DNA of 64,000 nt from Candidatus Hydrogenedentota bacterium (GTDB taxonomy: Bacteria; Hydrogenedentota; Hydrogenedentia; Hydrogenedentales; SLHB01): the NCBI GenBank assembly GCA_963668025.2, contig CAXXTH010000018.1, positions 192,001 to 256,000 of the forward strand, written 5' to 3'. This document shows, piece by piece, positions 33,362-52,570 of the stretch; position 1 is the first letter of the stretch, and each line of letters starts with the position of its first letter. The notes beneath the pieces are model-generated. The model saw only the letters and a program-made list of their open reading frames with translations. It was not told where the DNA came from and ran no database searches. A program made the position numbers and the translations under genes.

Positions 33362-34507
33362 CTAGACATACCCAGAGGCCGCTGCTGCAATAGAATCCAC
33401 CGCCTGGCGGATATGTTCTTCTGTAGTGAAGCGGCCTAAACTGATTCGGATGGCCGTTCTGGCTTCTTCTTCGTTCATGCCGATGGCGTGCAGAACGTGA
33501 TTTGGCTCTGGATGGATGGAACCGCATGCCGAACCCGCCGATGCGGCTATGCCAGGCATTGACTCAAGGAGCGCTTTGGCCGGAACGCCTGGAAAAGACA
33601 TGCAACTGATATGCGGTGCGCGCGCGCAGGCTTGGCCGTGAATACGTGTACCGGTGATTTTCTCAACCAAGGCCGCCTCGAGGCCATTCCGAAGCTCCGT
33701 GAGACGGGCCGTCTCATGAGAGAGTTCTTGCATCGCCAGCTCGCAGGCGAATCCACATCCCGCTACGCCTGGGGCATTCACGGTTCCGCTGCGTAATCCC
33801 CGTTCCTGGCCGCCGCCGCTAAACAGGGGCTCCAGCCGGACGCGAGGCGCCCGCTCCCGCACATAGAGCGCTCCCACGCCTTTGGGTCCATGGAATTTGT
33901 GCGCCGATATCGCCAGCAGGTCAATGCCCATGCGGTGAACATCAAGCGGAATCTTGCCAACGGCCTGCGTGGCGTCGCAAAAGAACAGCACGCCCCGTTG
34001 TTTGCAAATACGGCCGATGGCTTCAATGGGATTGAGCGTTCCAAGGATATTGTTGGCGGCCATGGCGCATACCAGAAAGGTTTCTTTGCGTATAGCAGAA
34101 GCCGTTTGTTCGGGCGCGATACGGCCATGCGGGTCTGGCTGGAGCCAAGTGATTTCCCATCCGGCGCGCTCCAAATGGCGGCACGATTCAAGCACGGCCT
34201 TATGTTCGGCAAGGGAACAAATGATATGCCTGCCCCGGTTTGAATACGCTGCGGCAGCTCCCTTGATCGCCAGATTCGCACTTTCCGTGGCGCTCGACGT
34301 GAACACGATTTCCCGGGGAGATGCACCGAGCGCATGGGCGGTTTGTATACGCGCTTCTTCCACTCGATCCCGCGCCTGGCGGCCCAGCAGGTGTGTCACA
34401 CTGGCTGGATTGCCATATTCTTCACGCAATATCGAGAACATAAACTCCAAGACACACGGGTCGATGGGAGTGGTCGAGGCGTTGTCCAAATAAATAATGG
34501 CTTCCAT
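33362..34507 (-). CDS. iscS: Group I cysteine desulfurase (IscS/NifS-like)
   Basis: IYLDNASTT, SAHKFHGPKG, RSGT.N, SAGSAC. Confidence 0.9.
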   Translation of the reverse strand: MEAIIYLDNASTTPIDPCVLEFMFSILREEYGNPASVTHLLGRQARDRVEEARIQTAHALGASPREIVFTSSATESANLAIKGAAAAYSNRGRHIICSLAEHKAVLESCRHLERAGWEITWLQPDPHGRIAPEQTASAIRKETFLVCAMAANNILGTLNPIEAIGRICKQRGVLFFCDATQAVGKIPLDVHRMGIDLLAISAHKFHGPKGVGALYVRERAPRVRLEPLFSGGGQERGLRSGTVNAPGVAGCGFACELAMQELSHETARLTELRNGLEAALVEKITGTRIHGQACARAPHISCMSFPGVPAKALLESMPGIAASAGSACGSIHPEPNHVLHAIGMNEEEARTAIRISLGRFTTEEHIRQAVDSIAAAASGYV

Positions 34508-34625
34508 ATTATCTCATTTTCTTTAAATGCTGAAGGACGTTTTGCACCAGAGGAATACCGGCTACATGAATTTGAGCCTCGACATGCCGCTCTGAACGAT
34601 TGGGCAAGCCCCATCTCACAGCTCT

Positions 34626-35795
34626 TTATTCATTCGAGTTCCGTTTTTTATCCATCGAGCGGTGAACCGTTTCGATCCAACCGCCGCCCAACAGCATGTC
34701 CTCCGCATACACCACCGCCGCTTGGCCCGGGACCGCACAATCCACGGGCGTATCGAAAACAGCTTGAAATCTGCCAGGGCCAAGCAGATGGATCGTGGCG
34801 TCATATGCGTGGGATGCGTACCGAATTTGGACGCTCGCGCGGAAGCACTGAGGGACCGTCTGCTGCCATAGGGCTTCCGCCGCCTCGATGCCATCTGTAC
34901 GTAGCCGTTCCTGATGACCCACCACTAAGGTATTATGCGGCGCGTCAATCGACACTACATAAAGAGGTTCAGGATGGGCGATTCCCAATCCCCGGCGCTG
35001 GCCAGTCGTATACCGGGCGATGCCTTGGTGTTCTCCGAGCAGATGGCCATCCACGCTATAGATAGGCCCCGGCCTTAAGCCGCTTGCGCCACGGCGCTCA
35101 AGCAAACCGGCATAGCCGTTATGCGGCGCGAAACAAATATCCTGGCTTTCCAGCTTGGCGCGCATATCCAGACGGGCTATATCCGCGATGGCCCGGACTT
35201 CGCTTTTGCTGGACACCTCGCCCAATGGCAGCAGCAGGCGCTGCAACAACGCCTTATCGAGGGTAAAAAGGACATAGGATTGATCTTTTTGCCGGCATGC
35301 GGCGCGGCATATGGTCCACTCGCCCGCATGGGCGCGGATACGCGCGTAATGGCCCGTAGCAAGATACGCGGCTCCTATGGAGTCCGCAAAACGGAGCAAA
35401 TGCGCGAATTTCACTTGCGCATTGCACAGCGGGCAAGGATTTGGCGTACGCCCCTGTTCGTAATCATGCACGAAGTAATCAATGATAGGCTTGATGGAAT
35501 CTCCCGCGCTGACAACATGAAAGGGAATTCCTATTTGTTCCGCCGCCCGCCGGGCGTCTTCCGCATCATCTGGCGAACAGCAAGAACGGCTTCCGACGGT
35601 TTGTTCAATAGCCGTGCTCAAACAGAGAAACACGCCATGCACGTCATAACCCGATTCGCGCAGTAAATAGGCCGTAACCGCGGAATCCACGCCGCCGCTC
35701 ATGCCAACGACGACCTGCTTAGGCCCGCTGTAATGAACGCTTATTTCTTGGCGCACGGAACGTTCTCCTTTATTGAAACGCATGGCCTCGCTCAT
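34626..35795 (-). CDS. mnmA: tRNA 2-thiouridine(34) synthase MnmA
   Basis: MSGGVDS, PNPCPLCN, ATGHY, KDQSY, SQDICF, TGQRRGL, PGQAAV. Confidence 0.95.
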   Translation of the reverse strand: MSEAMRFNKGERSVRQEISVHYSGPKQVVVGMSGGVDSAVTAYLLRESGYDVHGVFLCLSTAIEQTVGSRSCCSPDDAEDARRAAEQIGIPFHVVSAGDSIKPIIDYFVHDYEQGRTPNPCPLCNAQVKFAHLLRFADSIGAAYLATGHYARIRAHAGEWTICRAACRQKDQSYVLFTLDKALLQRLLLPLGEVSSKSEVRAIADIARLDMRAKLESQDICFAPHNGYAGLLERRGASGLRPGPIYSVDGHLLGEHQGIARYTTGQRRGLGIAHPEPLYVVSIDAPHNTLVVGHQERLRTDGIEAAEALWQQTVPQCFRASVQIRYASHAYDATIHLLGPGRFQAVFDTPVDCAVPGQAAVVYAEDMLLGGGWIETVHRSMDKKRNSNE

Positions 35796-35908
35796 AAATA
35801 CCTATCCCCCGCTTTGCCGGGGGATACATGTTCGATTCATAGACGCCGCTAAAGTAGTAATTGGCGTTTCCGTTATGCTCCCGATGATGCAACGGTATGG
35901 GGTGTTTG

Positions 35909-37888
35909 CTACAATCCAGCCCCCCGCCCGCTTTTCAAGTTCCATACGGCTGCGGCCAGCGCGTCGATCTCCTCACAAGTGTTGTAGAACGCCAGCGAAG
36001 GGCGCACGGTGCTTTCCAGGCCAAAGCGGCGCAAAACCGGCTGGGCGCAATGATGGCCAGCTCGCACCGCAATCCCTTCACGGCTTAAAGCCTTGCCGAC
36101 ATCCTCCGTGCTGAAACCATCCAACACAAACGATAGGACGCTGGCCTTTTCCCGGGCAGTTCCTATAAGGCGCAACCCAGGAATACGCTGAAGCGCTTGT
36201 ATGCCATACTGCAGCAGATTATGCTCATATCGAGCAATATTCGCCATGCCGATCCGGCTGGCATAGTCAATAGCCGCGCCAAGTCCGGCGGCGTCAGCGA
36301 TGCTGCCGGTTCCAGCTTCAAAACGTGCTGGGGCATCCTGGTAGATGGTCTTCTCGAATGTCACATCCACGATCATGTTGCCTCCTCCTTGCCAAGGGGG
36401 AGTTGATTCGAGCGCCTCCGGTTTTCCGTAAAGCACTCCGATGCCGTTGGGGCCAAACACTTTATGGCCGGAGAAGACATAAAAATCTGCATCCAGCGCC
36501 TGCACATCCACCGGCATGTGGGAAACAGCTTGTGCGCCATCAACAAGCACACGGGCGCCATGCCGGTGTGCGATAGCAATCATTTCCGCCACCGGCGTGA
36601 TGGTTCCCAGCGCATTGGAGACATGCGCCAAGGAAACGAGCCTTGTTCGCGGTGTAAACAGCTTCTCGTATTCATCTAGCAGAATCTGGCCGCTATCGTC
36701 CACCGGAGCGACCCGCAAGCGCGCGTTCTTCTCGGAAGCCAATTGCTGCCAAGGCACAATATTGGCATGATGCTCCAGCCAGGTAATGATGATTTCTTCC
36801 CCTTGCTGGATATAGCGCCGCCCCCAGCTCTGGGCAACCAAGTTGATGCCTTCAGTTGCTCCCCGGACGAACACGATATCGCTGGCCGCGCTGGCGTTGA
36901 GGAATCGAGCGGCTTTTTCGCGCGCCGCTTCGTACGCATCGGTGGAACGCGCCGCCAATTCGTGTGCGGCCCGGTGCACATTGGAGTTCTCATGCTGATA
37001 GAAGTACGTCAAGCGGTCAATGACCGATTGCGGCTTCTGTGTGGTGGCGGCATTATCGAGCCATACCAGTTGCCGCCCTCCAGAAACCTGCTCTTGCAGG
37101 ATCGGGAAATCTCTCCGGACTGAGGCGACATCAAAAGGCGCGGCCAGCGTGTCCGCCAGTGGCTGCACGGCCGTTTTTGCGTCGAGCGGCTCCAATGCGG
37201 GAACTATGTCTAGTAGAGCGATTGGTCGGGCATTATTGATGAAACCATACGTGGCAGGCAGGCCCCGCTGGACATCATGCGTAACGGCTCCCGGAAGCTG
37301 CGGCGCGGTTGGTTCTTGCGGTTTTGCGTTTACCGGAAGCGGAACTGCCCCAGGCAAGGCAGGCGGTTTGCCAGATAATTCTGTTTCCGCGGGAAACGTC
37401 ACCGTCCCGCCAGGCGGAGCCGCAGGAACCGCCTTTGTTGGTTCAGAGGAAAAGAGCGGGCGCACGTCCTCCACGAATCCATAGGATGGGATCGAAGAAA
37501 AATCCGCCACGGAAATGCCGCCTGGAATGCCGTACACCCTCAACTCTGGAACATCAGGGAGCGCTGTTGGGGCTGGTGTGGCAGCGCTTTGAAGCGCTGC
37601 GGGAATTGCAGCCAGATCAGCTTCTGTCAAATCGCCAGCCGCATCAAGGCCACTCCCATATATGGAAAAGGGAGGCCGTGTTGTGGCGGCTGCGGGCCTG
37701 AACAACGCTGCTACATTTTCATTGTCATGGGCAGGCAGCGCTTCAAAAAACTCGTTTGCCAGCCGCTCAAGTGTGGCGGCATCAGGAAATCCCGCAGCGG
37801 CCGCGCTCAACGAGCCGGGTTGCTCCAAGTTTGCTCCTGCTTCCTGGGCCAATCCCACAATCGTGTCATTGAGATTATTTATAATCAT
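35909..37888 (-). CDS. Family 2A encapsulin cargo cysteine desulfurase (SufS-type with long disordered N-terminus)
   Basis: Pro/Ala-rich N-terminal extension with LERLANEFF; WLDNAATTQKP; SGHK; RAGHHCAQP; overlaps the encapsulin stop. Confidence 0.93.
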   Translation of the reverse strand: MIINNLNDTIVGLAQEAGANLEQPGSLSAAAAGFPDAATLERLANEFFEALPAHDNENVAALFRPAAATTRPPFSIYGSGLDAAGDLTEADLAAIPAALQSAATPAPTALPDVPELRVYGIPGGISVADFSSIPSYGFVEDVRPLFSSEPTKAVPAAPPGGTVTFPAETELSGKPPALPGAVPLPVNAKPQEPTAPQLPGAVTHDVQRGLPATYGFINNARPIALLDIVPALEPLDAKTAVQPLADTLAAPFDVASVRRDFPILQEQVSGGRQLVWLDNAATTQKPQSVIDRLTYFYQHENSNVHRAAHELAARSTDAYEAAREKAARFLNASAASDIVFVRGATEGINLVAQSWGRRYIQQGEEIIITWLEHHANIVPWQQLASEKNARLRVAPVDDSGQILLDEYEKLFTPRTRLVSLAHVSNALGTITPVAEMIAIAHRHGARVLVDGAQAVSHMPVDVQALDADFYVFSGHKVFGPNGIGVLYGKPEALESTPPWQGGGNMIVDVTFEKTIYQDAPARFEAGTGSIADAAGLGAAIDYASRIGMANIARYEHNLLQYGIQALQRIPGLRLIGTAREKASVLSFVLDGFSTEDVGKALSREGIAVRAGHHCAQPVLRRFGLESTVRPSLAFYNTCEEIDALAAAVWNLKSGRGAGL

Positions 37889-38825
37889 AGTAATTGCCCA
37901 CATCGACATGTTCGAGAGCGGCGATGGCGTCGTCCACCAGCACGGCCGCCGAGCAATAGAGCGAGATCAGATACGAACCGATGCCTTGTCCATTGATGCC
38001 CATGAATCGAACGGACAACCCAGGCGTCTGTTCACCAGGCAGGCCGGGCTGATACAAGCCAACCACGCCCTGTTTTTTCTCTCCAACACGCAGCAGGAGG
38101 ATATCGGATTTTCCGCCATTACCTACAGGATTGGCCTCCCCATCAACAAGGAGCTTGTTGGTGGGAATGATTGGAATACCACGCCATGTCAGAAATGGCG
38201 AGCCAAACAAGGTGACTGTCGCAGGAGGAACGCCACGCCGGGTGCATTCGCGCCCGAAAGCGGCTATGGCTCGCGGATGGGCCAGGAAGAATGATGGTTC
38301 TTTCCATACTTTCGCGATCAAGTCATCCAAATCATCCGGGGTCGGCGCGCCTTTTCGGGTTGATATGCGCTGTGCGCGGGGAACGTTTTTCAGCAAGCCA
38401 TATTCAACATTGTTGAGCAATTCGTTCTCTTGCTTTTCCTTGATGGCCTCAATGGTCAATCGTAGCTGCTCGCGAATCTGGTCGAACGGATTACTGTATA
38501 AATCCGAAATACGCGTGTGGACATCCAGCACCGTGCTGATGCTGCTTAGCGTATACTCACGCGGTTTTTCCTGGTAATTCACAAATGTGCGGGGAAGAAT
38601 GCTCTCATCCTTTTTACCGCAAACTAAATCGATGGGCTTGTCTTCATCGACTTGGTTAAGCCGGAATGTTCCTGCTTCCAGCGGCTTCCAATCCAACAGC
38701 CGGACGAGCCATCGTGGGGTAATCGCGCCATATTGTGGCGGAGTTTTGGTGACATTGGCGAGCTGGAACGCCGCTGAGTCGCCGAGAATGTGGCTTTGCG
38801 CTTTTGCTGCTTTGATGTCGGACAT
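37875..38825 (-). CDS. Family 2A encapsulin shell protein (SrpI-like)
   Basis: QLANVTKT.PQ..ITPRWL, VHTRISDLY, PTPDDLD, FLAHP.AIAAFGRECTRRGVPP, GVVGLYQPGL, LSVRFMGI. Confidence 0.95.
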   Translation of the reverse strand: MSDIKAAKAQSHILGDSAAFQLANVTKTPPQYGAITPRWLVRLLDWKPLEAGTFRLNQVDEDKPIDLVCGKKDESILPRTFVNYQEKPREYTLSSISTVLDVHTRISDLYSNPFDQIREQLRLTIEAIKEKQENELLNNVEYGLLKNVPRAQRISTRKGAPTPDDLDDLIAKVWKEPSFFLAHPRAIAAFGRECTRRGVPPATVTLFGSPFLTWRGIPIIPTNKLLVDGEANPVGNGGKSDILLLRVGEKKQGVVGLYQPGLPGEQTPGLSVRFMGINGQGIGSYLISLYCSAAVLVDDAIAALEHVDVGNYYDYK

Positions 38826-38968
38826 GTCTGTTCTCCAATAAGGTTGTATCGAGTTTGTTTCGTACAAAATAAAGCTACTGGGTTTACCAATGTGTTTGCC
38901 TACATCCTTGAGATATCCAGCAAAGCCACATTCACCAAAAAAAATACATACTTACATATCTAAATCAC

Positions 38969-40450
38969 TTAATATTTAGGGGTGCTGGGGTCCACTTGGC
39001 CGGACCAGCCCAAAATGCCGTCTTTAAGATTTACGAGACGGCCGCCATATCCCGACGCGCGCAAATCATTAATCGCCTTAGCGCTGCGTATGCCTACTTT
39101 GCAAAAAATGACCGCAACACGGGCGGGGTCGATTTCCGCGGCCCGGTTTACGATTTGCCCTAGCGGAATGAGCTTTTCATAAGGCAAATTTGCAATCGCA
39201 TATTCATGTGGTTCACGTACGTCGATCAGTTGGAAGTCGCGCTGTTCATCGAACCATTGCTTCAATTCGGCTGCCGAGATCTCATCAGGTGTTCCATTAG
39301 CTGTTTCGCCCACGGCTGGCGCGGGCTGGCGGAGTCCGCAGAATTCCTCATAATCGATCAGTTCATGAAGAACCGGCTTTTCGCCGCAGATAGGGCACTT
39401 AGGATTCTTATGCAGCTTCATTTCGCGGAAACGCATCTTCCACGCATCAAACAACAACAGCCGGTTAATAAGCGGTTCACCGCCGCCCAAAATGAGCTTG
39501 ATTGTCTCATTAGCCTGTATCGAGCCAATGATGCCCGGCAAGACGCCAAGCACGCCTCCTTCCGCGCATGAGGGAACCAGCCCTGGGGGCGGTGGTTCAG
39601 TGAATAGGCACCGATAGCAAGCGCCCACTTTTGCCCAGAAGACACTTGCCTGGCCCTCGAATCGAAAAATCGAGCCGTATACATTGGGTTTACCGAGCAG
39701 CACGCAGGCGTCATTGACCAAATACCGCGTCGGGAAATTATCCGTGCCATCCACAATAATGTCGTAATCACGAATGATATCCAGCGCGTTCTGGCTCGTT
39801 AGACGGGTATCATATGCATCCACTTGCACGTGCCGGTTGATGTCGTAGATGCGATCGGCGGCTGAAGCAATTTTAGGGCGCCCGATATCTCTTGTGCCGT
39901 GGATCACTTGGCGCTGTAGATTGGATTCATCCACCACATCAAAATCTACGATGCCCAGATGGCCAATACCCGCCGCCGCTAGGTATAATCCCACGGGCGC
40001 GCCGAGGCCGCCCGTGCCGATCATAAGCACTCGTGCATTTTTCAGTTTACGCTGCCCTTCGACACCGACTTCTGGAAGGATTAGGTGGCGGCTATAACGT
40101 AGGATCTCCTGGTTAGAGAGTTCCGGCAATTTCATATGACTTGACGCTTCCGCGATTTCCGGGGCTTCTTCGGCAACGCCTCCAGCAATGGACGGCACCA
40201 CCATGATCGCAGCCCCATCAGCTACTGGCGTCTCCAATCCTGACTGATACCGGATGTCCTCATCGTTCACATAGATATTGACGAAACTGCGTAATTCCCC
40301 TTTATCATTGAACAAGTGTTTATTCAGTTCGGTATGCTGCGCTACGAGCTGGCCAAGCGCTTCGCCGACGTTTTTTGCATGCACGGCTATCTCGGGTTGA
40401 TTGCCAGTAAAACGGCGCAACGCCGTGGGAATCTGAATTAAAACGGGCAT
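38969..40450 (-). CDS. MoaD/CysO-like sulfur carrier fused to MoeB/E1 adenylyltransferase and rhodanese (MoeZ-like)
   Basis: 91-aa ubiquitin-like domain ending PSIAGG internally; RYSRHL, GTGGLG, SNLQRQ, CYRC, PSCAEGG, CPIC; rhodanese DVREPHE, CKVGIRS. Confidence 0.92.
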   Translation of the reverse strand: MPVLIQIPTALRRFTGNQPEIAVHAKNVGEALGQLVAQHTELNKHLFNDKGELRSFVNIYVNDEDIRYQSGLETPVADGAAIMVVPSIAGGVAEEAPEIAEASSHMKLPELSNQEILRYSRHLILPEVGVEGQRKLKNARVLMIGTGGLGAPVGLYLAAAGIGHLGIVDFDVVDESNLQRQVIHGTRDIGRPKIASAADRIYDINRHVQVDAYDTRLTSQNALDIIRDYDIIVDGTDNFPTRYLVNDACVLLGKPNVYGSIFRFEGQASVFWAKVGACYRCLFTEPPPPGLVPSCAEGGVLGVLPGIIGSIQANETIKLILGGGEPLINRLLLFDAWKMRFREMKLHKNPKCPICGEKPVLHELIDYEEFCGLRQPAPAVGETANGTPDEISAAELKQWFDEQRDFQLIDVREPHEYAIANLPYEKLIPLGQIVNRAAEIDPARVAVIFCKVGIRSAKAINDLRASGYGGRLVNLKDGILGWSGQVDPSTPKY

Positions 40451-40454: not shown

Positions 40455-40883
40455 TCATGCTCCTTTCCGTATTGGCTCTGGGTTGAAACGAGAACGATCT
40501 GCTTCCATTTCCCAAGAAAGCAGGCTGCCTGCTTGGCCTTGGCGTATAGCGACAATGACGTACGAATACGTTGGCCAGGCATGGTCCAAATCAAACTGGG
40601 ACGGCTCCGCCGGATGATCGGGATGCGAGTGATAAAACCCGACCACATCAAGCGCTTTCGAGCGGGCAAGTTTCTCTCCCGCCAGCAACTCATTCGGCGC
40701 TATTAAGAATCGGTTGTGCCGGGAGCCTGTATCGCGCGCATTGGCGATGGGATGTATTTCCACAACGCTTTTTCCATGTTGCGAATCAATACGGCCGATA
40801 AGCAGCCCACAACACTCATGGGGATACTCCGCTTCGCCATGCCGCCGGATTGCATCGAGATGCTCGGTTTGAATCAAAATCAT
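40455..40883 (-). CDS. JAMM/MPN+ (M67, Mec-like) metallopeptidase
   Basis: YPHECCG and YHSHPDHPAEPSQFD (E...HxH-x7-S-xx-D). Confidence 0.93.
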   Translation of the reverse strand: MILIQTEHLDAIRRHGEAEYPHECCGLLIGRIDSQHGKSVVEIHPIANARDTGSRHNRFLIAPNELLAGEKLARSKALDVVGFYHSHPDHPAEPSQFDLDHAWPTYSYVIVAIRQGQAGSLLSWEMEADRSRFNPEPIRKGA

Positions 40884-40885
40884 GC

Positions 40886-41851
40886 TCAACCCTCCTCCCA
40901 AAAGAAATCGCCCACATAACGGGAACCGCTGTCGCAGAGTATGGTGGCCACGACAGATCCAGGCGGCAGCGTGCGGGCCAGCCGGATGGCGGCAAATACA
41001 TTGGCTCCTGAACTGACGCCGACAAACAGCCCTTCACGTCGCGCCAAGCGCCGGGCGGTTTCCTGGGCATCTTCGGTGGAGACCTCCACCTGCTCATCTC
41101 CCAACGAAGCATCATAAATGCCAGGGACAATCGTTGTTTCTAGATGCTTCATCCCCTCCAAACCATGCAGAGGGGAGTCTGGCTGCATGCGAATGGCGCG
41201 CAAGCGGGGATTAAGCTCTTTTAGCCTGCGGACCGTACCGGTGAACGTGCCGGACGTGCCCATACCCGCAACAAAATGCGTCACCCGCCCTTCCGTCTGT
41301 TCCCATATTTCCGGGGCCGTCGTCTCATAATGCGCCCGCCAATTTGCTGGATTGTTATATTGATCTGGATAGAAGTATTTTCCAGGTTCTTTAACGGCTA
41401 ATTCGGCGGCCCGAACCTGTGCTCCGTCAGAACTCTGCAACGGATCGGTTTCAATGATCTGGGCTCCATATGCACGCATAATACGCTTGCGCTCTATACT
41501 GGCATTCTTCGGAAGGCATAATACGACCTGGTAGCCCAGAGTCGCACCGAGCATCGCATAAGCAATACCGGTATTGCCGCTGGTGGCGTCCAGAATAGTC
41601 ATGCCTGGCCGGAGCCGGCCCTCTCGTATTCCTTCTTGGATCATGGACCAGGCAGGCCGGTCTTTCACAGACCCGCCGGGATTCAAGTGCTCGGCTTTCG
41701 CATACACTGCCACCTCTTCAGGCAAATCATCCGCCAGGCGCGTGAGCCGCAATAACGGCGTGCGTCCAATGAGTTCGTATAATCTCCGCCCAATCCGAAC
41801 TGGACCAACAGAGGCGGCGAACTGCGTAGGAAGCGGTGCGGCGCAAACCAT
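40886..41851 (-). CDS. cysM: PLP-dependent cysteine synthase (CysM-type)
   Basis: NPGGSVKDR, TSGNTG, DQYNN, GMGTSGT, SSGAN; context with Mec and sulfur carrier. Confidence 0.85.
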   Translation of the reverse strand: MVCAAPLPTQFAASVGPVRIGRRLYELIGRTPLLRLTRLADDLPEEVAVYAKAEHLNPGGSVKDRPAWSMIQEGIREGRLRPGMTILDATSGNTGIAYAMLGATLGYQVVLCLPKNASIERKRIMRAYGAQIIETDPLQSSDGAQVRAAELAVKEPGKYFYPDQYNNPANWRAHYETTAPEIWEQTEGRVTHFVAGMGTSGTFTGTVRRLKELNPRLRAIRMQPDSPLHGLEGMKHLETTIVPGIYDASLGDEQVEVSTEDAQETARRLARREGLFVGVSSGANVFAAIRLARTLPPGSVVATILCDSGSRYVGDFFWEEG

Positions 41852-42016: not shown

Positions 42017-42048
42017 AACGCTAGGGCTGATTCTAGAAGGAGGGCTTT

Positions 42049-44066: not shown

Positions 44067-44110
44067 TTAGTAATCACAAGTAAATAAATCATATTTATCG
44101 GGTTTACGGT

Positions 44111-45001: not shown

Positions 45002-46477
45002 ATGGTGATTATGCCGCTAGTGAAGCCGGTGGAAACCAGGGAATCGCGTTTACAGTCAACGGTGGCGTATGGGGGCGGATGCCACGGGCTGGCCAATGGC
45101 GGCAAATGCCGTTGCCTGAAGCGCTTGGATAGGCGCTTTTCTCAAGCAACCGTATGCCAGGAATGGTACAGCTTGTTCACGCTGCTGACGGTGCGCAACG
45201 CCGCCGTGGTGGTACATGGGCCGGTGGGATGCGTGAGCAGCGGCGCCACCATGAACATTTTCAGCAGGCTGGGCCAGGAGGCCCGCGGGCATGAAAAAAT
45301 CCGTAGCGCGCGCTGGTTTTCGACCAATTTGGCGGAAATCGACACCATTCATGGCGGCGAGGCGAAACTGCGCGCCACAGTGCATGCCATCGAGCAGCGC
45401 TATCACCCTGAAGCTATTTTCATCTTTACGACGTGCGTGTCTGGAATCATTGGTGATCCGATGGCGGATATCGTGAATCAGCTTCAGGAAGAAGTGCAGG
45501 CGCGGCTGGTCCTCAGCCAATGCGAAGGATTTCGCACATCGGTCTGGGCGACGGGCTTCGATGCGGCGTTTCACGGGATCATTCATTACCTCCTGGAAGA
45601 GCGCCCGGAAAAGGAGCCGGATTTGGTGAATATCATCACACCGCTGACCGTGGGGCGGCTGGATGAATTGGAATTGGAACGATTGCTTCATCAATTGGGC
45701 CTGCGTCCCAATTTCGTACCGTGCTACGCAGGCATTGAAGATTTAAAACGTACGGTAAGCGCGGCGGCGACGGCTGCGGCTTGCTTAACCTATGGCGATT
45801 ATTTCGCACGCGCACTTTCGGAGCGGTATGGCGTGCCCCATATTCGGGAAGTCATGCCATTGGGCATTGCGAGCACGGATCGGTGGCTTCTGGAACTGGC
45901 GCCGCTTTTAGGAAAAGAAGCCGAGGCGGAAGCCTTGATTGCACGGGAGCATGAGCGTATCGCTCCGCGTCTTGAAGAATTGAGGAAACGCTTGGCGGGT
46001 AAGCGGGTGTTTGTCAGCGCGGGACAGGCCCGCGCCACCACGATGGCGGCCATGTCGAAAGAATTGGGCTTCGAGATCGTGGGGGCCACGATTTACCACT
46101 ACGACGAAGTAATTGAACAGAGCATGCAGCGCCTGGCGCAAACGTGCGGCGATTTCGCAGTGAATGTGGCGAATGTGCAGCCGTTCGAGCAGGCGAATTT
46201 GCTCCAGCGGCTGAAACCCGACTTATACATGGCGGATGAGATGACGACGGTATGGGCGGCCCGCCAAGGCATCGCCACAATGATGATCTACGACTATGGC
46301 ATGAATTATTTGGGGTACAACGGCCTTCTGGCCACGGGCGGGCGGATGGCGCAAGCAATGGATAATTCGAGCTTCAATGTGAAGCTGGCCCGGTACAATC
46401 CGCTGCCATACCGCTCATCCTGGTATAACGCGGACCCCTTTAAATACATCACAACGCCAGGAGGCCAGAACATATGA
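45002..46477 (+). CDS. Group IV nitrogenase-like component 1 alpha subunit (NflD/MarD-like)
   Basis: RESRL N-terminus; P-cluster Cys in TVCQE, GPVGC, TTCVSGIIGD; CEGF; AAACLT; LPYR..W...DPF. Confidence 0.9.
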   Translation: MVIMPLVKPVETRESRLQSTVAYGGGCHGLANGGKCRCLKRLDRRFSQATVCQEWYSLFTLLTVRNAAVVVHGPVGCVSSGATMNIFSRLGQEARGHEKIRSARWFSTNLAEIDTIHGGEAKLRATVHAIEQRYHPEAIFIFTTCVSGIIGDPMADIVNQLQEEVQARLVLSQCEGFRTSVWATGFDAAFHGIIHYLLEERPEKEPDLVNIITPLTVGRLDELELERLLHQLGLRPNFVPCYAGIEDLKRTVSAAATAAACLTYGDYFARALSERYGVPHIREVMPLGIASTDRWLLELAPLLGKEAEAEALIAREHERIAPRLEELRKRLAGKRVFVSAGQARATTMAAMSKELGFEIVGATIYHYDEVIEQSMQRLAQTCGDFAVNVANVQPFEQANLLQRLKPDLYMADEMTTVWAARQGIATMMIYDYGMNYLGYNGLLATGGRMAQAMDNSSFNVKLARYNPLPYRSSWYNADPFKYITTPGGQNI

Positions 46478-47784
46478 GCACAGAACAGCATTTGGTCGAG
46501 AATCCCCGGTATTCGTGCGCGCTCGGCGGCGCACTGGCGACGGCCACGGCCATGCACCGGGTGGTGCCCATCCTGCATGGCGGCCCCGGATGCGGGCTCC
46601 AAGTGTATAACGGACAGAATTATGTAGCAGGCTACCAAGGACCGGCGTATATCGGCGGCTCGGCTGTGCCCAGCACGAACACAGTGGAGCGCGAAGTGGT
46701 GTTCGGCGGCGAACAAAAGCTCCATGCGCTGCTCCGCTCCGCCATCGAGCTTATAGATGGCGATTTGTACCTCGTGCTGACCGGTTGCACGGCGGAGATC
46801 ATCGGCGATGATGTAGCGGCCGTGGTGGCGGAATACCGGCGGGAAGGGCGCAACGTGGCTTATGCGGAAACCGGCGGATTCAAAGGTAATACGCTGCTCG
46901 GTTATGAACTGGTGTGGAAGGGGCTGCTGCGCCAAGTCGTGGAGCGGCGTCCTCGCGATCCCAAGCTGGTGAATCTATTTGGCGTCATACCCGCGCAAGA
47001 TATTTTCTGGGAGGGCGGCCTCCAGGAGATCGCCCGGCTGCTCGAAGCGCTCGGCTTGCACGTACATACGTTTTATACCAACCGGCAAGGCGTCGAGGAA
47101 ATAAAGAATTCGTCCGCCGCCGCGCTCAATATCGTGCTAAATCCTTGGCTGGGCGCGGATCTTGCCGCGCAGTATGAAAAAGCGTACAGAGTTCCATCGC
47201 TTCGGTTTGACGGCATGCCGGTGGGCCCCACGGAAACGAGCGCCTTCTTGCGCACCGTGGGGGAAGCGCTTGGCCTGTCCACGGAGGCAGTGAACGCCGT
47301 AATCGAACGTGAAACGCAGGCGGTGTATGACCAATTCGCCAAGGCGTCGCTGGCGGTGACGGGGTTTGGATTCCAGCACCGGGTGGCCATTATTGGAGAA
47401 AGCGGGCCCGCGCTCAATCTGGCGCGCTTTCTTTCCAATGATTTCGGGCAGATTTTAGCCGCCGTGGCGATCACGGACGATCCGCCGGAGCCGGTGCGGG
47501 AGCGGCTGGCCGCGGCACTCGGCTCTTTGGAATTCGGCCCTATTCCAGAAGTGATCTTCACCTCGGAGCAATCCACGATCTGGGAACACATCCGCCAAAC
47601 GGAGCCGACGTACATTATCGGCAGTTCACTCGATAAGGATCTTGCCCAGGAACTGGGGGTGCTGCATCTGAGCGCCACATTCCCAGTCACGGACCGGGTC
47701 GTGCTTAACCGTTCTTACACAGGGTATCGCGGCTGCGTGACCCTGGTGGAAGACTTCATTGCGCAAGCAATCACGGCGTTATGA
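46474..47784 (+). CDS. Group IV nitrogenase-like component 1 beta subunit (NflK/MarK-like)
   Basis: PRYSCALGG, HGGPGCG, PSTN..E.EVVFGG, LTGCTAEIIGDD. Confidence 0.9.
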   Translation: MSTEQHLVENPRYSCALGGALATATAMHRVVPILHGGPGCGLQVYNGQNYVAGYQGPAYIGGSAVPSTNTVEREVVFGGEQKLHALLRSAIELIDGDLYLVLTGCTAEIIGDDVAAVVAEYRREGRNVAYAETGGFKGNTLLGYELVWKGLLRQVVERRPRDPKLVNLFGVIPAQDIFWEGGLQEIARLLEALGLHVHTFYTNRQGVEEIKNSSAAALNIVLNPWLGADLAAQYEKAYRVPSLRFDGMPVGPTETSAFLRTVGEALGLSTEAVNAVIERETQAVYDQFAKASLAVTGFGFQHRVAIIGESGPALNLARFLSNDFGQILAAVAITDDPPEPVRERLAAALGSLEFGPIPEVIFTSEQSTIWEHIRQTEPTYIIGSSLDKDLAQELGVLHLSATFPVTDRVVLNRSYTGYRGCVTLVEDFIAQAITAL

Positions 47785-47932: not shown

Positions 47933-49378
47933 ATGGGCGTCGCAGTAGCACCTGAAACCATTCGAGCAGAGTCATATGGCCTCAAGGACCAAATCCTCTC
48001 GCCACTCGAGACCTTGGCGCAGTCCATTGCAAACATTGCGCCAACGGCCACGCCGACGGTAGTCATTCCATTGGTGTTTGCCTTATCCGGCAATGGAACC
48101 TGGCTTGCCTACCTCATCGCCACCGTCGCCATGCTGTTTGTGGCGTCGAACATCAACCATTTCGCCCGGCGTTCCGCATCGCCTGGCTCGTTGTACACCT
48201 ATATCGCCACGGGGCTAGGCCCAAGCTGGGGCGTTCTGGCGGGTTGGTCGCTGGTGATCGCGTACATCGGATGCGCATCCGCCGTCACCAGCGGATTCGC
48301 CAATTACGCCAATGTGTTTCTCCTAGCTACGGTGGGATTTGAGCTTCCGCCAGTCCTTTTGATCGCGCTCAGCGTGGCGCTTTCGTGGCTGGTGGCGTAT
48401 AAGGACATCCAGCTTTCCGCACGGCTCATGCTGGTGCTCGAGCTGTCCTCCGTGAGCTTGATCCTGTTGCTGGTGGCCATCACCCTCGTGCGGTTTGGCT
48501 TCCGCCTGGATCTTTCGCAAATCACGCTGGAAGGCGTGACTCCCACGAGCCTTCGCCTGGGCTTGGTGCTCGCCATGTTCAGCTTCGTGGGATTCGAGAG
48601 CGCGACAGCATTGGGCACGGAAGCGCGCAATCCACTGCGCAATATCCCCCGGGCCGTTGTCCTCAGTGCGGTAATCGTCGGAAGCTTGTTTGTGATTGCG
48701 ACGTATGCCGAGGTCATTGGCTTCACGGGTTCTAGCGAGACGCTAGGTGCGAGTTCCGCGCCGCTGCATGTGCTCGCGGAACGAGGAGGAGCGCCTTTCT
48801 TGGGCCTTCTCGTGGACCTAGGCGCGGTGGTGAGCCTGTTCGCATGCACGCTCGCCAGCATCAATGCCGGTGCGCGCGTTCTCTTCCTCATGGGCCGCCA
48901 CGGCATTTTCCATGCTTCCGTGGGCGGCGCGCATGATACGAATGAAACGCCTCACATCGCCGTGACCATTTCCACCGTGCTGGCGTTCCTTCCCGCGGCG
49001 TTCCTCGCCCTGCGCGGCGTCGCCATGTTCGACATTTATGGATGGGTGGGCACTGTTTGCACATTGGGATTCCTGGTGGCGTACGTCATCGTTTCGGTGG
49101 CTGCTCCAGTCTATTTGCGCCGCCGAGGCGAACTACGCCTGCACCATGTGGCGGTGGCTGCGCTGGCCGTGGGCCTTTTGGTCCTGGCTATCGCCGGGAA
49201 CCTCTACCCCGTGCCTCCAGCTCCCCTAAATTGGCTCCCCTATCTGTATTTCGGCCTGCTGCTGTCTGGCGCCGTATGGCTCATGGTGCTGCGCTACTTC
49301 GCACCCAATGTGATCATCCGTATCCAAGATGACGTGGCGGCCATCCGTGAACGGTTCAGTGATGGGGGCGGCATTTGA
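47933..49378 (+). CDS. APC-family amino acid permease
   Basis: ~12 TMs; GSLYTY, FVGFESA, EARNP.RNIPRA, ARVLFLMGR. Confidence 0.92.
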   Translation: MGVAVAPETIRAESYGLKDQILSPLETLAQSIANIAPTATPTVVIPLVFALSGNGTWLAYLIATVAMLFVASNINHFARRSASPGSLYTYIATGLGPSWGVLAGWSLVIAYIGCASAVTSGFANYANVFLLATVGFELPPVLLIALSVALSWLVAYKDIQLSARLMLVLELSSVSLILLLVAITLVRFGFRLDLSQITLEGVTPTSLRLGLVLAMFSFVGFESATALGTEARNPLRNIPRAVVLSAVIVGSLFVIATYAEVIGFTGSSETLGASSAPLHVLAERGGAPFLGLLVDLGAVVSLFACTLASINAGARVLFLMGRHGIFHASVGGAHDTNETPHIAVTISTVLAFLPAAFLALRGVAMFDIYGWVGTVCTLGFLVAYVIVSVAAPVYLRRRGELRLHHVAVAALAVGLLVLAIAGNLYPVPPAPLNWLPYLYFGLLLSGAVWLMVLRYFAPNVIIRIQDDVAAIRERFSDGGGI

Positions 49379-49430
49379 ATTATCCAGCGTGTGCCGAACA
49401 GGCGGAATAAGCCCGAGGAGGATCATCAAA

Positions 49431-49625
49431 ATGGCATATGCACATAATTATGACAATAGGCCTCCAATTTATCGATGGGAACGGCTGTTTAAGCGATTTC
49501 CAAAAAACGAGGCAAAAAACGAGCCGCATATGCTGCGCTCTCTCGAAGACGCCGTGACGCTTGTTCAACAACAGTACCCACACAATACCCGCACTCTCGT
49601 GGTGAAACTGGGTTCACCCGAGTAA
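49431..49625 (+). CDS. Small hypothetical protein (64 aa)
   Basis: GAGGAGG RBS; fills the gap in a co-oriented operon. Confidence 0.5.
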   Translation: MAYAHNYDNRPPIYRWERLFKRFPKNEAKNEPHMLRSLEDAVTLVQQQYPHNTRTLVVKLGSPE

Positions 49626-49706: not shown

Positions 49707-51266
49707 ATGACGAAACGAATCTTATTTCTAACGCTGCTGGCCGGACTTTTGCCGCTGCCCGCCATAGCCGAATTGCAGAACGTCGAGATAGGCGGCAAAC
49801 TCCAAATACGTGGGAATTGGTACACCAATTATTTGGCCAGTCCGGATGGAGCCCGCCTGCGGTGGCCTGGCAATTGGCTTGCTGGGCGCGCCATAGGCTC
49901 CTCGGATGGAAGCATCTGGAGCGCCTTTTCCTGGGACAAAGACAGCAATAGCTCCCGCGATGTGAACCAGCGGACCCGGCTAAGCGCCAAGGCCGATTTT
50001 ACAGGTGAGGTGACAGGGCTCATCGAGTTCGACAGTTATGACACCTGGGGTGAGGATTTCCGCTCGAACCACATCACGGGCGCGGATTTTCGCCAAAACT
50101 CGGCGGCGGATGATGTCTCGGTATATCAAGCTTATATCGAGGCGCGCGAATTAGGCGGATTGCCCCTTACGCTCAAAGTCGGGCGGCAGGAAGTGCTGCT
50201 TGGCAGCGGATGGCTTATCGGAACGAATGACACTGGTTCTATTTTCACCGGGCTTTCGTTTGACGCGGTAGCGCTGGTATACGCTCAAGACCCTGTGCAA
50301 ATCGTTGGCTTCTGGGCAAAAGGCTATGATGGCGGCCTTGCGGAAGAAGACGGCGATGTGGACCTCTACGGCGTATACGGCACGTACACCGGGCTTGAGA
50401 ACCAGGCCTTTGATGCGTACTGGATCTTGGGCCGCGATGCGCGCAGTGTCAATGACACCAATTTTAGCTGGGTGGGGGAAACCGTTGAAGGCTTTCTTGG
50501 GCTAGATGACTATAATGTTACCAATCTGCATACGGTCGGCCTCCGCGGAAGTGGCAAGATCGGCGCGTTTGATTATGAAGCGGAAGCCGCATATCAGTTT
50601 GGAGATGCAAGCCAGGAAGGCTCCCTGTTCAAGTTGGGCTTCTATGGCGATGACGATGCTTCTTTTGATGCGCTGGGTGCGAATTTGGAGTTGGGCTACA
50701 CATTCGACACCGCGTGGTCGCCTCGCTTGTTCTTGGGCGGCGCCTATTTCAGCGGTGAAGACAACCGCTCGACATCGTTCTGGGATCAGTTTAATCCCTT
50801 CCGGGAGCCCAAGGCGAGCGTGAGTTTTGACCGCTTGTTCTCGAACTGGGGCTACAGTGAGTTTCTAGATTTCACGGAACTCTCTAACATCTATGTCTTG
50901 AGATCAGGCGTGGTGGCGAAACCCACGGAAGCGCTGACCTTAAAACTGCTCCTCAGCTACTTCAATACGGTCGAGCCCTTTGAAGCCCCTGTAACCTTCA
51001 ATCTGGGTGGTTATCAGATTCCCATTGCTCCAGGCCTGGGGTGGTGGACCAAGGAAAATCCTTCGGATTTGGGCTGGGAGGCCGAGGTTATCGCCAACTA
51101 TCAGTACACCGAAGACCTGTCTTTCGAGGTGGGCTGGGCGCACTTGTTCGTGGGCGACGGCTTAGCCTCGGGCGCGTTTAATTCCAATAATGGACTGGCT
51201 TTTACGGGCGGTTCAGGAAGCGACGACTCAGATTACCTCTATGCGGAGACCAAACTTAAATTCTAG
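49707..51266 (+). CDS. Alginate-export-family outer-membrane beta-barrel
   Basis: Signal peptide then AELQNVEIGG; YQAYIE, KVGRQE..LGSGWLIG, SFDA, DLGWE; C-terminal Phe. Confidence 0.85.
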   Translation: MTKRILFLTLLAGLLPLPAIAELQNVEIGGKLQIRGNWYTNYLASPDGARLRWPGNWLAGRAIGSSDGSIWSAFSWDKDSNSSRDVNQRTRLSAKADFTGEVTGLIEFDSYDTWGEDFRSNHITGADFRQNSAADDVSVYQAYIEARELGGLPLTLKVGRQEVLLGSGWLIGTNDTGSIFTGLSFDAVALVYAQDPVQIVGFWAKGYDGGLAEEDGDVDLYGVYGTYTGLENQAFDAYWILGRDARSVNDTNFSWVGETVEGFLGLDDYNVTNLHTVGLRGSGKIGAFDYEAEAAYQFGDASQEGSLFKLGFYGDDDASFDALGANLELGYTFDTAWSPRLFLGGAYFSGEDNRSTSFWDQFNPFREPKASVSFDRLFSNWGYSEFLDFTELSNIYVLRSGVVAKPTEALTLKLLLSYFNTVEPFEAPVTFNLGGYQIPIAPGLGWWTKENPSDLGWEAEVIANYQYTEDLSFEVGWAHLFVGDGLASGAFNSNNGLAFTGGSGSDDSDYLYAETKLKF

Positions 51267-51279
51267 ATAAGCGCGGAAT

Positions 51280-51325
51280 GGCGGAGCGCCAGGCTTCTTA
51301 ATACGGAAAAGAATGGCGCTCCGCC
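51280..51325. other. Stem-loop after the porin gene
   Basis: GGCGGAGCGCCA...TGGCGCTCCGCC. Confidence 0.5.
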
Positions 51326-51340
51326 CTAAGGAGAAGCGTT

Positions 51341-51679
51341 ATGGCGGTGCGGATTGCTATCACGAGCATAGACAATGTGCTGGTCGAACAGCACTTTGGC
51401 GCAGCGGTGCGTTTTCAAGTATATGAAATCGGAGCAGGTGAATACCGCTTCATAGAAGCGCGCGACACATCGCCTTCTTGTGATCGTGGCGAAACCAACG
51501 CCGCCAGGAGAATCCATCACGTGCTTGATGCGCTTTCAGACTGCACGGCCGTGCTGGCGAGCTGCATAGGCCCATGCGCCGCCCAGGAATTACAGGCGCG
51601 AGGAATGCGCTATTACATCACGTATGAATATATTGAAACAGCACTGAGAAAATTGATAACGCAAAAAGTATTCGCTTAG
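51341..51679 (+). CDS. NifX/NifB-family metallocluster-binding protein
   Basis: RIAITS, QHFGAA..F.VYE, LSDCTAVL..CIG. Confidence 0.88.
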   Translation: MAVRIAITSIDNVLVEQHFGAAVRFQVYEIGAGEYRFIEARDTSPSCDRGETNAARRIHHVLDALSDCTAVLASCIGPCAAQELQARGMRYYITYEYIETALRKLITQKVFA

Positions 51680-51694
51680 CGGAAAGGGGTTGCA

Positions 51695-52570
51695 ATGTCG
51701 AAGAAGATTAAACAAGTGGCGATTTATGGCAAGGGCGGAATTGGAAAATCCACGACGACATCGAATATCAGCGCGGCGCTAGCCGTGGCGGGCTACCGGG
51801 TTATGCAGTTCGGCTGCGATCCCAAGAGTGATTCCACCAATACATTGCGCGGCGGGCATTATATCCCAACCGTTCTGGATTCTTTGCGCGAACATGAAAA
51901 TGTCCGTCCCGAGGAAGTGGTTTATCAAGGCTTCGGAGGCGTTTACTGTGTGGAAGCAGGCGGGCCAGCGCCCGGCGTGGGTTGCGCGGGGCGCGGCATC
52001 ATCACTGCAGTGGATTTGATGAAACAGCTCCATGTCTTCGAGGACCTCGATATCGATATCGTGATTTATGATGTCCTTGGAGACGTAGTATGCGGCGGAT
52101 TCGCCGTGCCCATCCGGGAAGGCATCGCCGAGCATGTATTCACGGTGTCTTCCGCGGACTTCATGGCCATCTATGCGGCGAATAACCTGTTTAAAGGCAT
52201 TCGGAAATACTCGCATGCTGGCGGCGCACTCTTGGGTGGTGTCATCGCCAACTCGATCAACAAGCCGTATGCACGGGACATTATTGATGACTTCGTATTG
52301 CAGACAAGCACAAAAGTCATCGAATATGTGCCCCGCTCCGTGACCGTGACCCAAAGCGAATTGCAAGGTAAAACAGTCATTGAAGCTGCTCCGGCGTCCG
52401 AACAAGCGCGCATTTATAGCAGTTTGGCTGAACGGCTTGTTCAGCACACCGATTCGCGCATCCCCACGCCTCTCGAAAACCAGGGGCTTCGGGAATGGGC
52501 GGAAAAATGGGCCGAAGTGCTGTTGTCCATCGAAATAGGAGAAGTGCAGGGAACCGCCGCCAGTATCTAA
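51695..52570 (+). CDS. Nitrogenase iron-protein-like reductase (NflH/MarH-like, group IV)
   Basis: YGKGGIGKST, GCDPKSDST, GGPAPGVGCAGRG, DVVCGGFAVPIREG; as I recall, close to R. rubrum MarH. Confidence 0.93.
   Translation: MSKKIKQVAIYGKGGIGKSTTTSNISAALAVAGYRVMQFGCDPKSDSTNTLRGGHYIPTVLDSLREHENVRPEEVVYQGFGGVYCVEAGGPAPGVGCAGRGIITAVDLMKQLHVFEDLDIDIVIYDVLGDVVCGGFAVPIREGIAEHVFTVSSADFMAIYAANNLFKGIRKYSHAGGALLGGVIANSINKPYARDIIDDFVLQTSTKVIEYVPRSVTVTQSELQGKTVIEAAPASEQARIYSSLAERLVQHTDSRIPTPLENQGLREWAEKWAEVLLSIEIGEVQGTAASI

Follow-up and report, generated by a model that had tools for sequence, protein, structure and literature searches.

Encapsulin, cysteine-synthesis and nitrogenase-like genes side by side in a Candidatus Hydrogenedentota genome: a probable sulfur-limitation island of composite origin

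In a window of 64,000 nucleotides (nt), taken from contig CAXXTH010000018.1 of a Candidatus Hydrogenedentota genome and used here for all position counts, an island of about 19 kb (33362-52570) consists of three blocks: a six-gene encapsulin/cysteine module, a pair of mnmA and an iscS-like gene, and a nitrogenase-like set, B-D-K and X-H, with a permease of the APC family in it. We consider it a composite island for sulfur limitation, in which a native encapsulin/thiocarboxylate module has been joined by a spare pair for tRNA thiolation and by a minimal nitrogenase-like reductase of foreign origin. These blocks would be used together without depending on each other. We give this explanation a probability of about 60%. 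An earlier reading of the letters alone (the sequence-only reading) had listed these genes, and its list and order proved correct: the open reading frames (ORFs), Pfam and NCBIfam show all the genes it named intact and in the given order. The small ORF at 49329-49625 is the exception. An open frame does exist there, but it has no match to a Pfam or NCBIfam family and is probably no real gene. The component parts are of known kinds.

That this is a sulfur island, as had been proposed, is borne out by two observations, sulfur-poor proteins on both arms and the recurrence of the same type of reductase next to an encapsulin. The background for cysteine plus methionine (Cys+Met) was built from 3503 ORFs of at least 200 residues in the rest of the genome; it has a mean of 4.08% and a 5th percentile of 2.12%. 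Six of the 15 island proteins, three on each arm, fall below that percentile (binomial 5e-5; Mann-Whitney p 0.0016; percentages in Table 1). CysE contains no Cys and two Met in 314 residues, which corresponds to the 0.1st percentile, and CyD, the cargo desulfurase of the encapsulin, lies at the 0.6th. The porin is free of both residues after its start, which makes it unique among the 3503 ORFs. Sulfur-depleted proteins are made in sulfur-starved cyanobacteria. The composition found here matches that of such starvation proteins and supports the view that both arms would be marked for sulfur shortage.

The recurrence concerns the D subunit, which belongs to a small clade with Asp in place of a His ligand (see below) and is called Asp-type here. 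Two loci of this clade lie 5-9 kb from a CyD or shell gene, in another phylum and with another gene order. In a metagenome-assembled genome (MAG) of the Solibacteraceae (locus L005), two MarD-like pairs flank the Asp-type pair and are followed by a PIG-L-family gene, a rhodanese, CyD and the shell. A metagenome contig (L087) has the same layout and ends within CyD; the two count as one lineage. The shell of the window is 82-85% identical to those of its own order vs 69-70% to that of L005, and the genes are arranged differently; the two adjacencies have therefore arisen separately. Shell genes are rare: they were found in 7 of 135 genomes of the phylum (5%) and in 11 of 401 genomes of the Acidobacteriota order to which the Solibacteraceae MAG belongs (3%). 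The D clade is rare as well, the MAG itself being its only carrier among the 401. That the two should have met twice within 10 kb by chance is unlikely.

Under sulfur shortage, the parts might cooperate as follows. CysE would produce O-acetylserine. The JAMM protease would expose the Gly-Gly end of a fused carrier, the E1 domain would adenylate this carrier, and the rhodanese domain would turn it into the carrier thiocarboxylate. CysM would then couple O-acetylserine with the thiocarboxylate, whereupon JAMM could free the cysteine. The shell and its desulfurase may hold or buffer sulfur derived from cysteine, and the spare MnmA and IscS-like proteins may serve tRNA thiolation and Fe-S supply. 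The minimal reductase would comprise the NifB-like maturase, the NifX-like carrier, the NifH-type ATPase and a single D/K pair. Most likely, D/K would reductively cleave a sulfur compound imported by the APC permease and thus deliver reduced sulfur for cysteine. The blocks probably adjoin because they are used under one and the same condition. Observed are the gene identities, motifs, phylogeny, distribution and amino-acid composition, from which each catalytic step, the substrates and a co-regulation of the arms are predicted.

The composite character follows from the distribution of the blocks. The shells of 82-85% identity mentioned above belong to four genomes of a single genus, which is placed in a different family of the order; in all four the fusion gene comes before that of the shell. 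Three of them (G048, G049 and G050) have the complete module, with cysE divergent from cysM-JAMM-fusion-shell-CyD, in identical order and with 64-84% identity. On the module contigs of these three genomes no homologues of D/K, mnmA or iscS were found. The fusion-bearing form of the operon thus exists in the window and in four more of the seven encapsulin-bearing genomes of the phylum; G039 shares only shell and CyD with the window in synteny, nothing further. D was absent from all 40 relatives searched at E<=1e-20 and from all 134 other genomes of the phylum searched at E<=1e-60. Its nearest sequences, with 61-71% identity, stem from metagenomes and from two MAGs, one of the Myxococcales and the one of the Solibacteraceae. 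The three blocks are distributed separately and therefore have separate histories: the first block appears to be native to the order, the third to have been gained from outside the phylum. The expectation that the two arms would occur together in related genomes has accordingly been only half confirmed. In the second lineage the D clade does stand near a desulfurase encapsulin, yet none of the five other encapsulin carriers searched within the phylum has a nitrogenase-like gene beside the module.

There is also a good deal that speaks against a joint role in sulfur limitation. Each block occurs without the others, so none needs another. The adjacency has been seen in two independent lineages only, and 11 of the 13 loci of the D clade lack CyD or shell; most of these loci are short, but L086 and L089, of about 21 kb each, lack them too. 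D (4.90% Cys+Met), B, X, the IscS-like protein (4.74%) and MnmA show no shortage of sulfur residues. In part, a low Cys+Met also goes with the protein family: in other clades the K subunits have 2.25% on average, and outer-membrane barrels and Pro/Ala-rich domains such as that of CyD are naturally sulfur-poor. Between the two arms lies a high-copy repeat that short-read contigs of four runs do not bridge. Neither regulator nor mobile-element genes were found in the flanks of the island, the island itself holds no regulator gene, and this lack of a regulator counts here. A 13-nt word at 41899-41911, repeated at 43911-43923 (two matches in the window vs 0.19 expected), came into question as a shared operator of both arms. 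It has six copies in the genome, and the four others have unrelated flanks; the word is therefore given little weight, and the operator is unconvincing. Finally, clades outside Group IV-C had no methylthio-alkane activity on the three thioethers screened, as reported in the available part of PMC13753814. According to the same part of that paper, Group IV systems, including clades outside IV-C, sit with sulfur genes, which speaks for the link to sulfur.

Table 1. Features of the island in the order of their positions within the window. Cys+Met is given for the six sulfur-poor proteins.
Feature	Position	Strand	Evidence	Cys+Met
IscS/NifS-like class V cysteine desulfurase	33362-34507	-	PF00266 264 bits
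MnmA, tRNA 2-thiouridine synthase	34626-35795	-	NF001138 362 bits vs cut-off 284
CyD, family 2A cargo cysteine desulfurase	35909-37909	-	NF041166 851 bits vs cut-off 800	1.20%
Family 2A encapsulin shell	37875-38867	-	NF041162 513 bits vs 380	1.52%
ThiS-ThiF-rhodanese fusion	38969-40450 (open frame to 40693)	-	PF02597, PF00899 and PF00581 in one frame
JAMM/MPN+ metalloprotease	40455-40901	-	PF14464 94 bits
CysM-like cysteine synthase, dependent on pyridoxal phosphate	40886-41851	-	PF00291 257 bits
Divergent promoter region cysM/cysE	41852-42048	.	sigma-70-like site on the minus strand, 42012-41983, 11/12 positions
CysE serine O-acetyltransferase	42049-42996	+	TIGR01172 157 bits (under cut-off), NF041874 141 bits, hexapeptide repeats	0.64%
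Non-coding spacer cysE/nifB-like	42997-44110	.	1.1 kb, without genes or Rfam match
NifB/MarB-like radical S-adenosylmethionine (SAM) maturase, without NifX domain	44111-44992	+	TIGR01290 nifB 254 bits, model 5-278 of 441
Subunit D, nitrogenase-like	45002-46477	+	PF00148 278 bits
Subunit K, nitrogenase-like	46474-47784	+	PF00148 237 bits	1.38%
APC-family permease	47933-49378	+	PF00324, PF13520	1.88%
Outer-membrane beta-barrel porin, Alginate_exp family	49707-51266	+	PF13372 106 bits, signal peptide	0%
NifX/NflX-like cofactor-binding protein	51341-51679	+	PF02579 70 bits; also C-terminal part of nifB model
NifH/MarH-type Fe protein, ATP-dependent reductase	51695-52570	+	TIGR01287 404 bits vs 394

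The sequence-only reading had gone further and postulated one integrated pipeline. The porin and the permease would import the substrate and the reductase would free its sulfur, which would pass directly to rhodanese, E1, carrier and CysM; the surplus would be kept in the shell as a store for MnmA and IscS. We regard so tight a coupling as doubtful. Of course, all its parts lie intact within 19 kb, the sulfur-sparing composition is seen on both arms, and the D clade meets CyD and shell again in L005 and L087. It has also been proposed, in the accessible part of PMC10836720, that the rhodanese of encapsulin operons fetches the sulfur of the shell, and here this domain is fused to E1 and carrier. 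The module, however, has no adjoining nitrogenase-like partner in three related genomes, and the reductase clade does without CyD and shell in the 11 of 13 loci counted above, the two of about 21 kb included. Close paralogues of the porin stand in unrelated contexts. The nearest characterised enzymes, as far as PMC13753814 and bioRxiv 10.64898/2026.08.20.746119 are available, yield methanethiol, which is used for methionine; methanethiol is no substrate of a rhodanese. That the reductase passes its sulfur on to the thiocarboxylate pathway or to the shell we can only infer.

For the nitrogenase-like proteins, the methylthio-alkane reductase (MAR) system of R. rubrum offers the best solved relatives. 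D scores 302 bits with MarD (9FMG), K 320 bits with MarK (9D9U/9FMG) and H 482 bits with MarH (9FMG_D); 9FMG is the MarDK2H2 complex, as described in the available text of PMC12552129. D retains C52, C77 and C145 and also the cofactor cysteine, C261 (Cys270 in MarD). K retains the P-cluster-type residues C15, C40 and C105, columns that are conserved in all 17 aligned K proteins. With these cysteines kept in both subunits, it is plausible that the pair has a P-cluster-type site as well as one for a cofactor. H has the P-loop GKGGIGKS, Cys97 and Cys133, and in the NifB-like protein the motif CX3CX2C is formed by C38, C42 and C45.

One difference concerns a ligand. In MarD, His429 binds Fe8, and the pair Arg428-His429 on Loop I has been proposed as a hallmark of MAR, again in the part of PMC12552129 at hand. 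In the D subunit of the window this loop is one residue shorter, and Arg428-His429 is replaced by Ala411-Asp412, Asp412 standing at the position of His429. Asp occupies this place in 18 of 18 proteins of the clade. Among 80 more distant homologues, 66 have His there, 22 of these as Arg-His.

In the tree, D falls into a clade of 13 rows with a support of 100 (FastTree, 128 rows) or 99 (IQ-TREE, 42 rows); these trees were built without R. rubrum MarD and without references of Groups IV-A, D, E and F. The other members are the Myxococcales MAG, the Solibacteraceae MAG and ten metagenome contigs. The row most similar to MarD, L088:6734-8200 with 450 bits to 9FMG_A, is found in a different clade, also supported by 100, that excludes the D of the window (302 bits). 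For rows from three further clades the scores are 215, 245 and 307 bits. In the approximately unbiased test a sister relation of the Asp-type and MarD-like clades was not rejected (p 0.142). We therefore read D/K as a presumable Group IV nitrogenase-like pair, close to Mar, outside the Mar clade as sampled and, by the ligand test, no MAR. The earlier assignment to group IV MarBHDK thus holds in part: the pair is Group IV-like and Mar is its nearest solved relative, but it is not MarDK, since it lies outside the MarD-like clade and lacks Arg-His. The lettered group to which the D clade belongs may already be placed in the supplements of PMC13753814, PMC12552129 or bioRxiv 10.64898/2026.08.20.746119.

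A true nitrogenase (Nif, Vnf or Anf) was considered and rejected. The nifD model gives 155 bits vs 653, the nifK model 93 vs 427, and the genome has only two PF00148 genes. The second subunit of a NifEN-type scaffold is without most P-cluster Cys; such a loss was not found here, K keeping all three Cys columns.

A related possibility was weighed as well. D/K might be no carbon-sulfur reductase at all but a NifEN-like scaffold left over from a mar cluster with several D/K pairs, or it might act on some other substrate; the sulfur-related neighbours would then be incidental. The best NCBIfam match of D is indeed NifE (172 bits), and some members of the clade are named NifE by their sources. NifE is not known to have the His ligand, and D lacks it too. 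Five relatives of the locus (L005, L087, L088, L089 and L093) have one or two MarD-like pairs alongside, which could be the clients of a scaffold, and the inactivity of clades outside IV-C on the three tested thioethers (PMC13753814, as far as available) would fit as well. Yet three P-cluster-type Cys are kept in K and three in D. The D/K pair is the only one in the genome, as is the strong NifH-type match, so a client is missing, and all five genes are intact. K, permease and porin are sulfur-poor, and the APC permease accompanies this D clade only. We hold a scaffold, or an unrelated substrate, to be distinctly improbable and return to the composite island with a working reductase.

The relatives show how such a locus may look elsewhere. 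Their Asp-type pair usually stands beside one or two MarD-like pairs and has X, H and B in common with them. The window, with its lone D/K and one B, X and H, could therefore serve as a source of a minimal set of five genes. In the scan of species genomes, at least two members of the clade (L004 and L005) were among the best 80 loci. Loci of the Acidobacteriota type (L005:7446-15591, L088:6734-13682, L089 and L093) contain MarD-like, Asp-type and MarD-like pairs in tandem, with one NifX, NifH, NifB and APC permease in common. In L005 a phage-type integrase lies upstream, and the permease and one K appear to be frameshifted.

Two further groups of loci were noticed. The clade closest to the D of the window by identity (46-50%; L006-L011) keeps His at the ligand position; its hosts are MAGs of methanogens (Methanosarcinales, Methanobacteriaceae) and one Desulfotomaculum MAG. 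In another D clade (L027, L034, L053, L058, L075 and L079), from gut Bacillota and one deltaproteobacterial MAG, D/K directly follows cysE and an E1-like and/or IscS-like gene, with no match to B or H on the stretch. Judged by gene order, this is a second recurring link of nitrogenase-like pairs with E1 or cysteine genes.

The APC permease has homologues of 41-64% identity in 5 of the 13 loci of the D clade and in none of 78 other nitrogenase-like loci. By this distribution it is a partner specific to the D clade. A closer functional name was sought in NCBIfam and in the Atlas, where only the family name was obtained.

The porin is less telling. It had been taken for the channel through which the organosulfur compound enters. 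The porin is certainly there, but the role of a substrate channel is not supported: the genome contains three paralogues with 52-57% identity and 1.9-2.3% Cys+Met, whose neighbours are competence, glycosyl hydrolase and glycosyltransferase genes without any pattern. With paralogues elsewhere in the genome, it may simply replace a general porin by a version without sulfur and need not be the entry for a particular substrate.

One may also imagine that the Asp-type D/K is a new enzyme with a NifB-made cluster held by Cys and a carboxylate. It would act on amino-acid-like organosulfur compounds that enter via the APC permease, and it would be wired to the desulfurase encapsulin in at least two lineages. 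Its sulfur, released in reduced form without the use of oxygen, would proceed to the carrier thiocarboxylate and to cysteine and be banked in the shell, from where the E1-rhodanese would recover it. As a whole, this bold version is unlikely.

Compared with MarBHDK of R. rubrum (9FMG, 9D9U; Group IV-C), the set of the window has in common a B protein without NifX domain, the six P-cluster Cys, the cofactor Cys, the equivalents of Trp195, Phe199 and His375 in D, and Cys97 and Cys133 in H. It differs in that His194, Ser196 and Phe374 of MarD are replaced by Val, Ala and Tyr, respectively. The APC permease and the porin lie inside the cluster of the window, and its host is not a phototrophic alphaproteobacterium. 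The activity of Mar is the cleavage of dimethyl sulfide, ethyl methyl sulfide and (2-methylthio)ethanol to methanethiol; by clade and ligand, the D/K of the window would stand outside Mar.

Other Group IV systems share other features. In R. palustris, Mar2/NflDK3 (bioRxiv 10.64898/2026.08.20.746119, from its available part) also has B and H apart from D and K and a separate NifX homologue. The R. palustris loci combine several D/K pairs with one B and H, as do L005 and L088, are surrounded by sulfur genes and are induced by sulfate limitation. All three D proteins, however, keep Cys270 and His429, where the clade of the window has Asp, and an encapsulin is not mentioned in that part of the preprint. 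The isethionate reductase IsrBHDK of R. capsulatus (Group IV-F; PMC13474568, available in part) likewise resides in a sulfur region, where a transporter, cysE, cysK and sufS are co-induced. In contrast to the window, the P-cluster Cys of IV-F are divergent, the transporter is of the ABC and not the APC type, and a shell is missing from the locus as described in that part of the paper.

For most clades of Group IV nitrogenase-like proteins no function is known. The D clade now stands out among them by its ligand change and its own permease.

On the encapsulin side, the family assignment is straightforward. The sole Pfam domain of the shell is PF19307, and the family 2B model matches its C-terminal half only; the cNMP-binding insert of 2B is absent. 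CyD has a long Pro/Ala-rich N-terminal domain followed by a SufS-like domain that starts at about residue 260. NF041166 spans residues 35-658 and PF00266 residues 282-651; the active-site motif HHCA is found at 619. In the ORF list, cyD and the final part of the shell gene overlap. By sequence criteria, shell and CyD are a family 2A encapsulin system. Assembly of the shell, loading with CyD and storage of sulfur are its predicted roles.

The fusion protein comprises a ThiS/MoaD-like carrier ending in Gly-Gly, a ThiF/MoeZ-type E1 adenylyltransferase and a rhodanese. It most likely starts at 40450, the position of Met82 in the open frame. This is 4 nt past the stop of the JAMM gene and also the point where the ThiS domain begins. 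SIAGG at residues 168-172 of the open frame is followed by a linker, and GTGGLG, two CxxC and the rhodanese motif FCKVGIRS were identified. The fusion as such is common and no novelty, an idea that was rejected when the ThiS-E1-rhodanese make-up turned up in 120 of the 120 homologues listed. The metal-site motif of the JAMM protein, HSHPDHPAEPSQFD (H-x-H-x7-S-x2-D), is intact. The genes for CysM, JAMM and fusion overlap or are 4 nt apart in the ORF list.

The CysM-like protein reaches 366 bits with TIGR01138 (cysM), under the cut-off of 394, and has paralogues on contigs C9 and C17. Among the structures, CysM of E. coli and Salmonella is nearest (265 bits), vs 189 bits for the O-phosphoserine-dependent CysM of M. 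tuberculosis. With a Gly-Gly carrier, an E1-rhodanese, an intact JAMM and CysM in one operon, the genes are those of a protein-thiocarboxylate cysteine pathway, as far as gene content can tell.

A thiocarboxylate route to cysteine with CysO, CysM and Mec is known from M. tuberculosis, and JAMM proteases process the precursors of sulfur carriers. The Gly-Gly carrier, the E1-rhodanese, JAMM and CysM of the window correspond to CysO, MoeZ, Mec and CysM. The differences are the carrier fused to E1 and a CysM that, by the scores just given, is nearer to E. coli. Since the carrier is part of a fusion, JAMM must presumably cut the precursor first, and the cysE gene alongside points to O-acetylserine instead of O-phosphoserine. 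The role of MoeZR in the mycobacterial route is dealt with in the available part of PMC3227635.

The SrpI operon of S. elongatus and the R-AT-Enc-CD operon of A. baumannii resemble the window in having shell, CyD, a serine O-acetyltransferase and a rhodanese; operons of family 2A are reported to be induced by sulfur starvation and to store elemental sulfur (PMC10836720, PMC8346489, both in the parts available). The four published types of 2A operons, shell-CyD with or without rhodanese and serine O-acetyltransferase, do not include the form seen in the window, as far as PMC10836720 is available. In the Acidobacteriota order a stand-alone rhodanese accompanies the shell in 4 of 11 genomes, the fusion in none of the 11. 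The module of the window, whose rhodanese is the C-terminal domain of the carrier-E1 fusion and which has JAMM and CysM in addition, is thus a local variant. For the recovery of sulfur from encapsulins, the rhodanese fused to E1 and carrier, together with JAMM, CysM and CysE, suggests a concrete route.

In a literature search that left about 1.7 million PubMed Central articles and supplements outside, we found no paper that combines an encapsulin with nitrogenase-like genes or with a thiocarboxylate pathway. The earlier claim that the combination is undescribed therefore stands within these limits. In the literature searched, neither the encapsulin operon with carrier-E1-rhodanese, JAMM and CysM nor the Asp-type D clade, its permease and its repeated meeting with the desulfurase encapsulin was found. 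Beyond this case, a sulfur-free porin and other sulfur-poor proteins could serve as a pointer, readable from the letters alone, to sulfur-starvation regulons in uncultured bacteria.

In two carriers of the module, four high-scoring PF00148 genes stand in tandem on other contigs than the module (G048:C740:3902-9493 and G049:C37:81198-86797). They are nifDKEN-like, so some members of the order may fix nitrogen.

The middle block can be described briefly. The IscS-like protein reaches 431 bits with its best NCBIfam model, IscS (cut-off 548), and 411 bits with NifS (cut-off 531); with both cut-offs unmet, it is classed only as an IscS/NifS-like class V desulfurase. It is the second copy in the genome, the 43% identical paralogue being on contig C8. 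The other mnmA copy (G000:C23:30723-31751) outscores the island copy at 17 of 18 loci of relatives. By these comparisons, both island genes are extra copies, and mnmA is a divergent one. A desulfurase and MnmA form a known pair, YrvO-MnmA, in B. subtilis.

Between cysE and the nifB-like gene, the spacer contains two repeats. The first has about 220 bp (about 43040-43258). The second, of 307 bp (43351-43657), has inverted ends of 28 nt and an inner palindrome. BLASTN with the two yielded 52 and 62 matches in the genome, and at least seven and at least eight further copies, respectively, are near full length with 81-95% identity. Both families look like miniature inverted-repeat transposable elements native to this genome.

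It is here that the join of the two arms must be questioned, since it is at these elements that the short-read assemblies break. Contigs from four public short-read runs end on either side of 43080-43632. Over this segment the read depth is 694-830 vs about 5 nearby, i.e., about 150-fold higher, and no bridging short-read contig was found. The join therefore rests on the source assembly. In principle, the arms could stem from different places or strains and have been joined via the repeat, or their adjacency could be mere chance. The breaks in all four runs and the copy number of the elements are what this suspicion has on its side. The depth left and right of the repeat block, however, is alike in each run (4.49 vs 5.3; 4.89 vs 3.9). 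The source assembly comprises 6.1 Mb in 24 contigs, two of them larger than 1.4 Mb, is free of N across the window and passes through many further copies of the spacer repeats inside its contigs; the completeness of the genome is 93.75%. A second lineage shows a similar adjacency, and sulfur-poor proteins are found on both sides. An artefact or chance is thus highly improbable.

A few contigs in three of the runs appear to join 43068-43070 to 52615, 45 nt past the H gene; such a joint would omit the reductase arm. The matching sides of 22-25 letters are under the trust limit, and a flanking direct repeat was not found. The joint is probably repeat noise, though some copies of the locus may lack the arm.

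A promoter-like site on the plus strand (44038-44066) precedes the nifB-like gene. The Rfam scan of the window yielded no riboswitch or other RNA family. Behind the porin gene lies a hairpin with a 17-bp stem (51280-51325), and the gap between permease and porin contains a 30-nt palindrome (49433-49462). They are possible terminator or operator sites, which would divide the plus arm into several transcripts.

The neighbours in the flanks are genes for a nucleoside symporter, Hsp20, a LON-domain protein, a fucosidase, a glycosylase and a SAM hydrolase-type protein. Two genes that follow H, for a metallophosphoesterase and an MFS protein, are not sulfur-poor and were counted outside the island. 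SAM hydroxide adenosyltransferase splits SAM into adenosine and methionine. A gene of this family lies on the opposite strand at 56983-57885, 4.4 kb past the island, and is probably unrelated to it.

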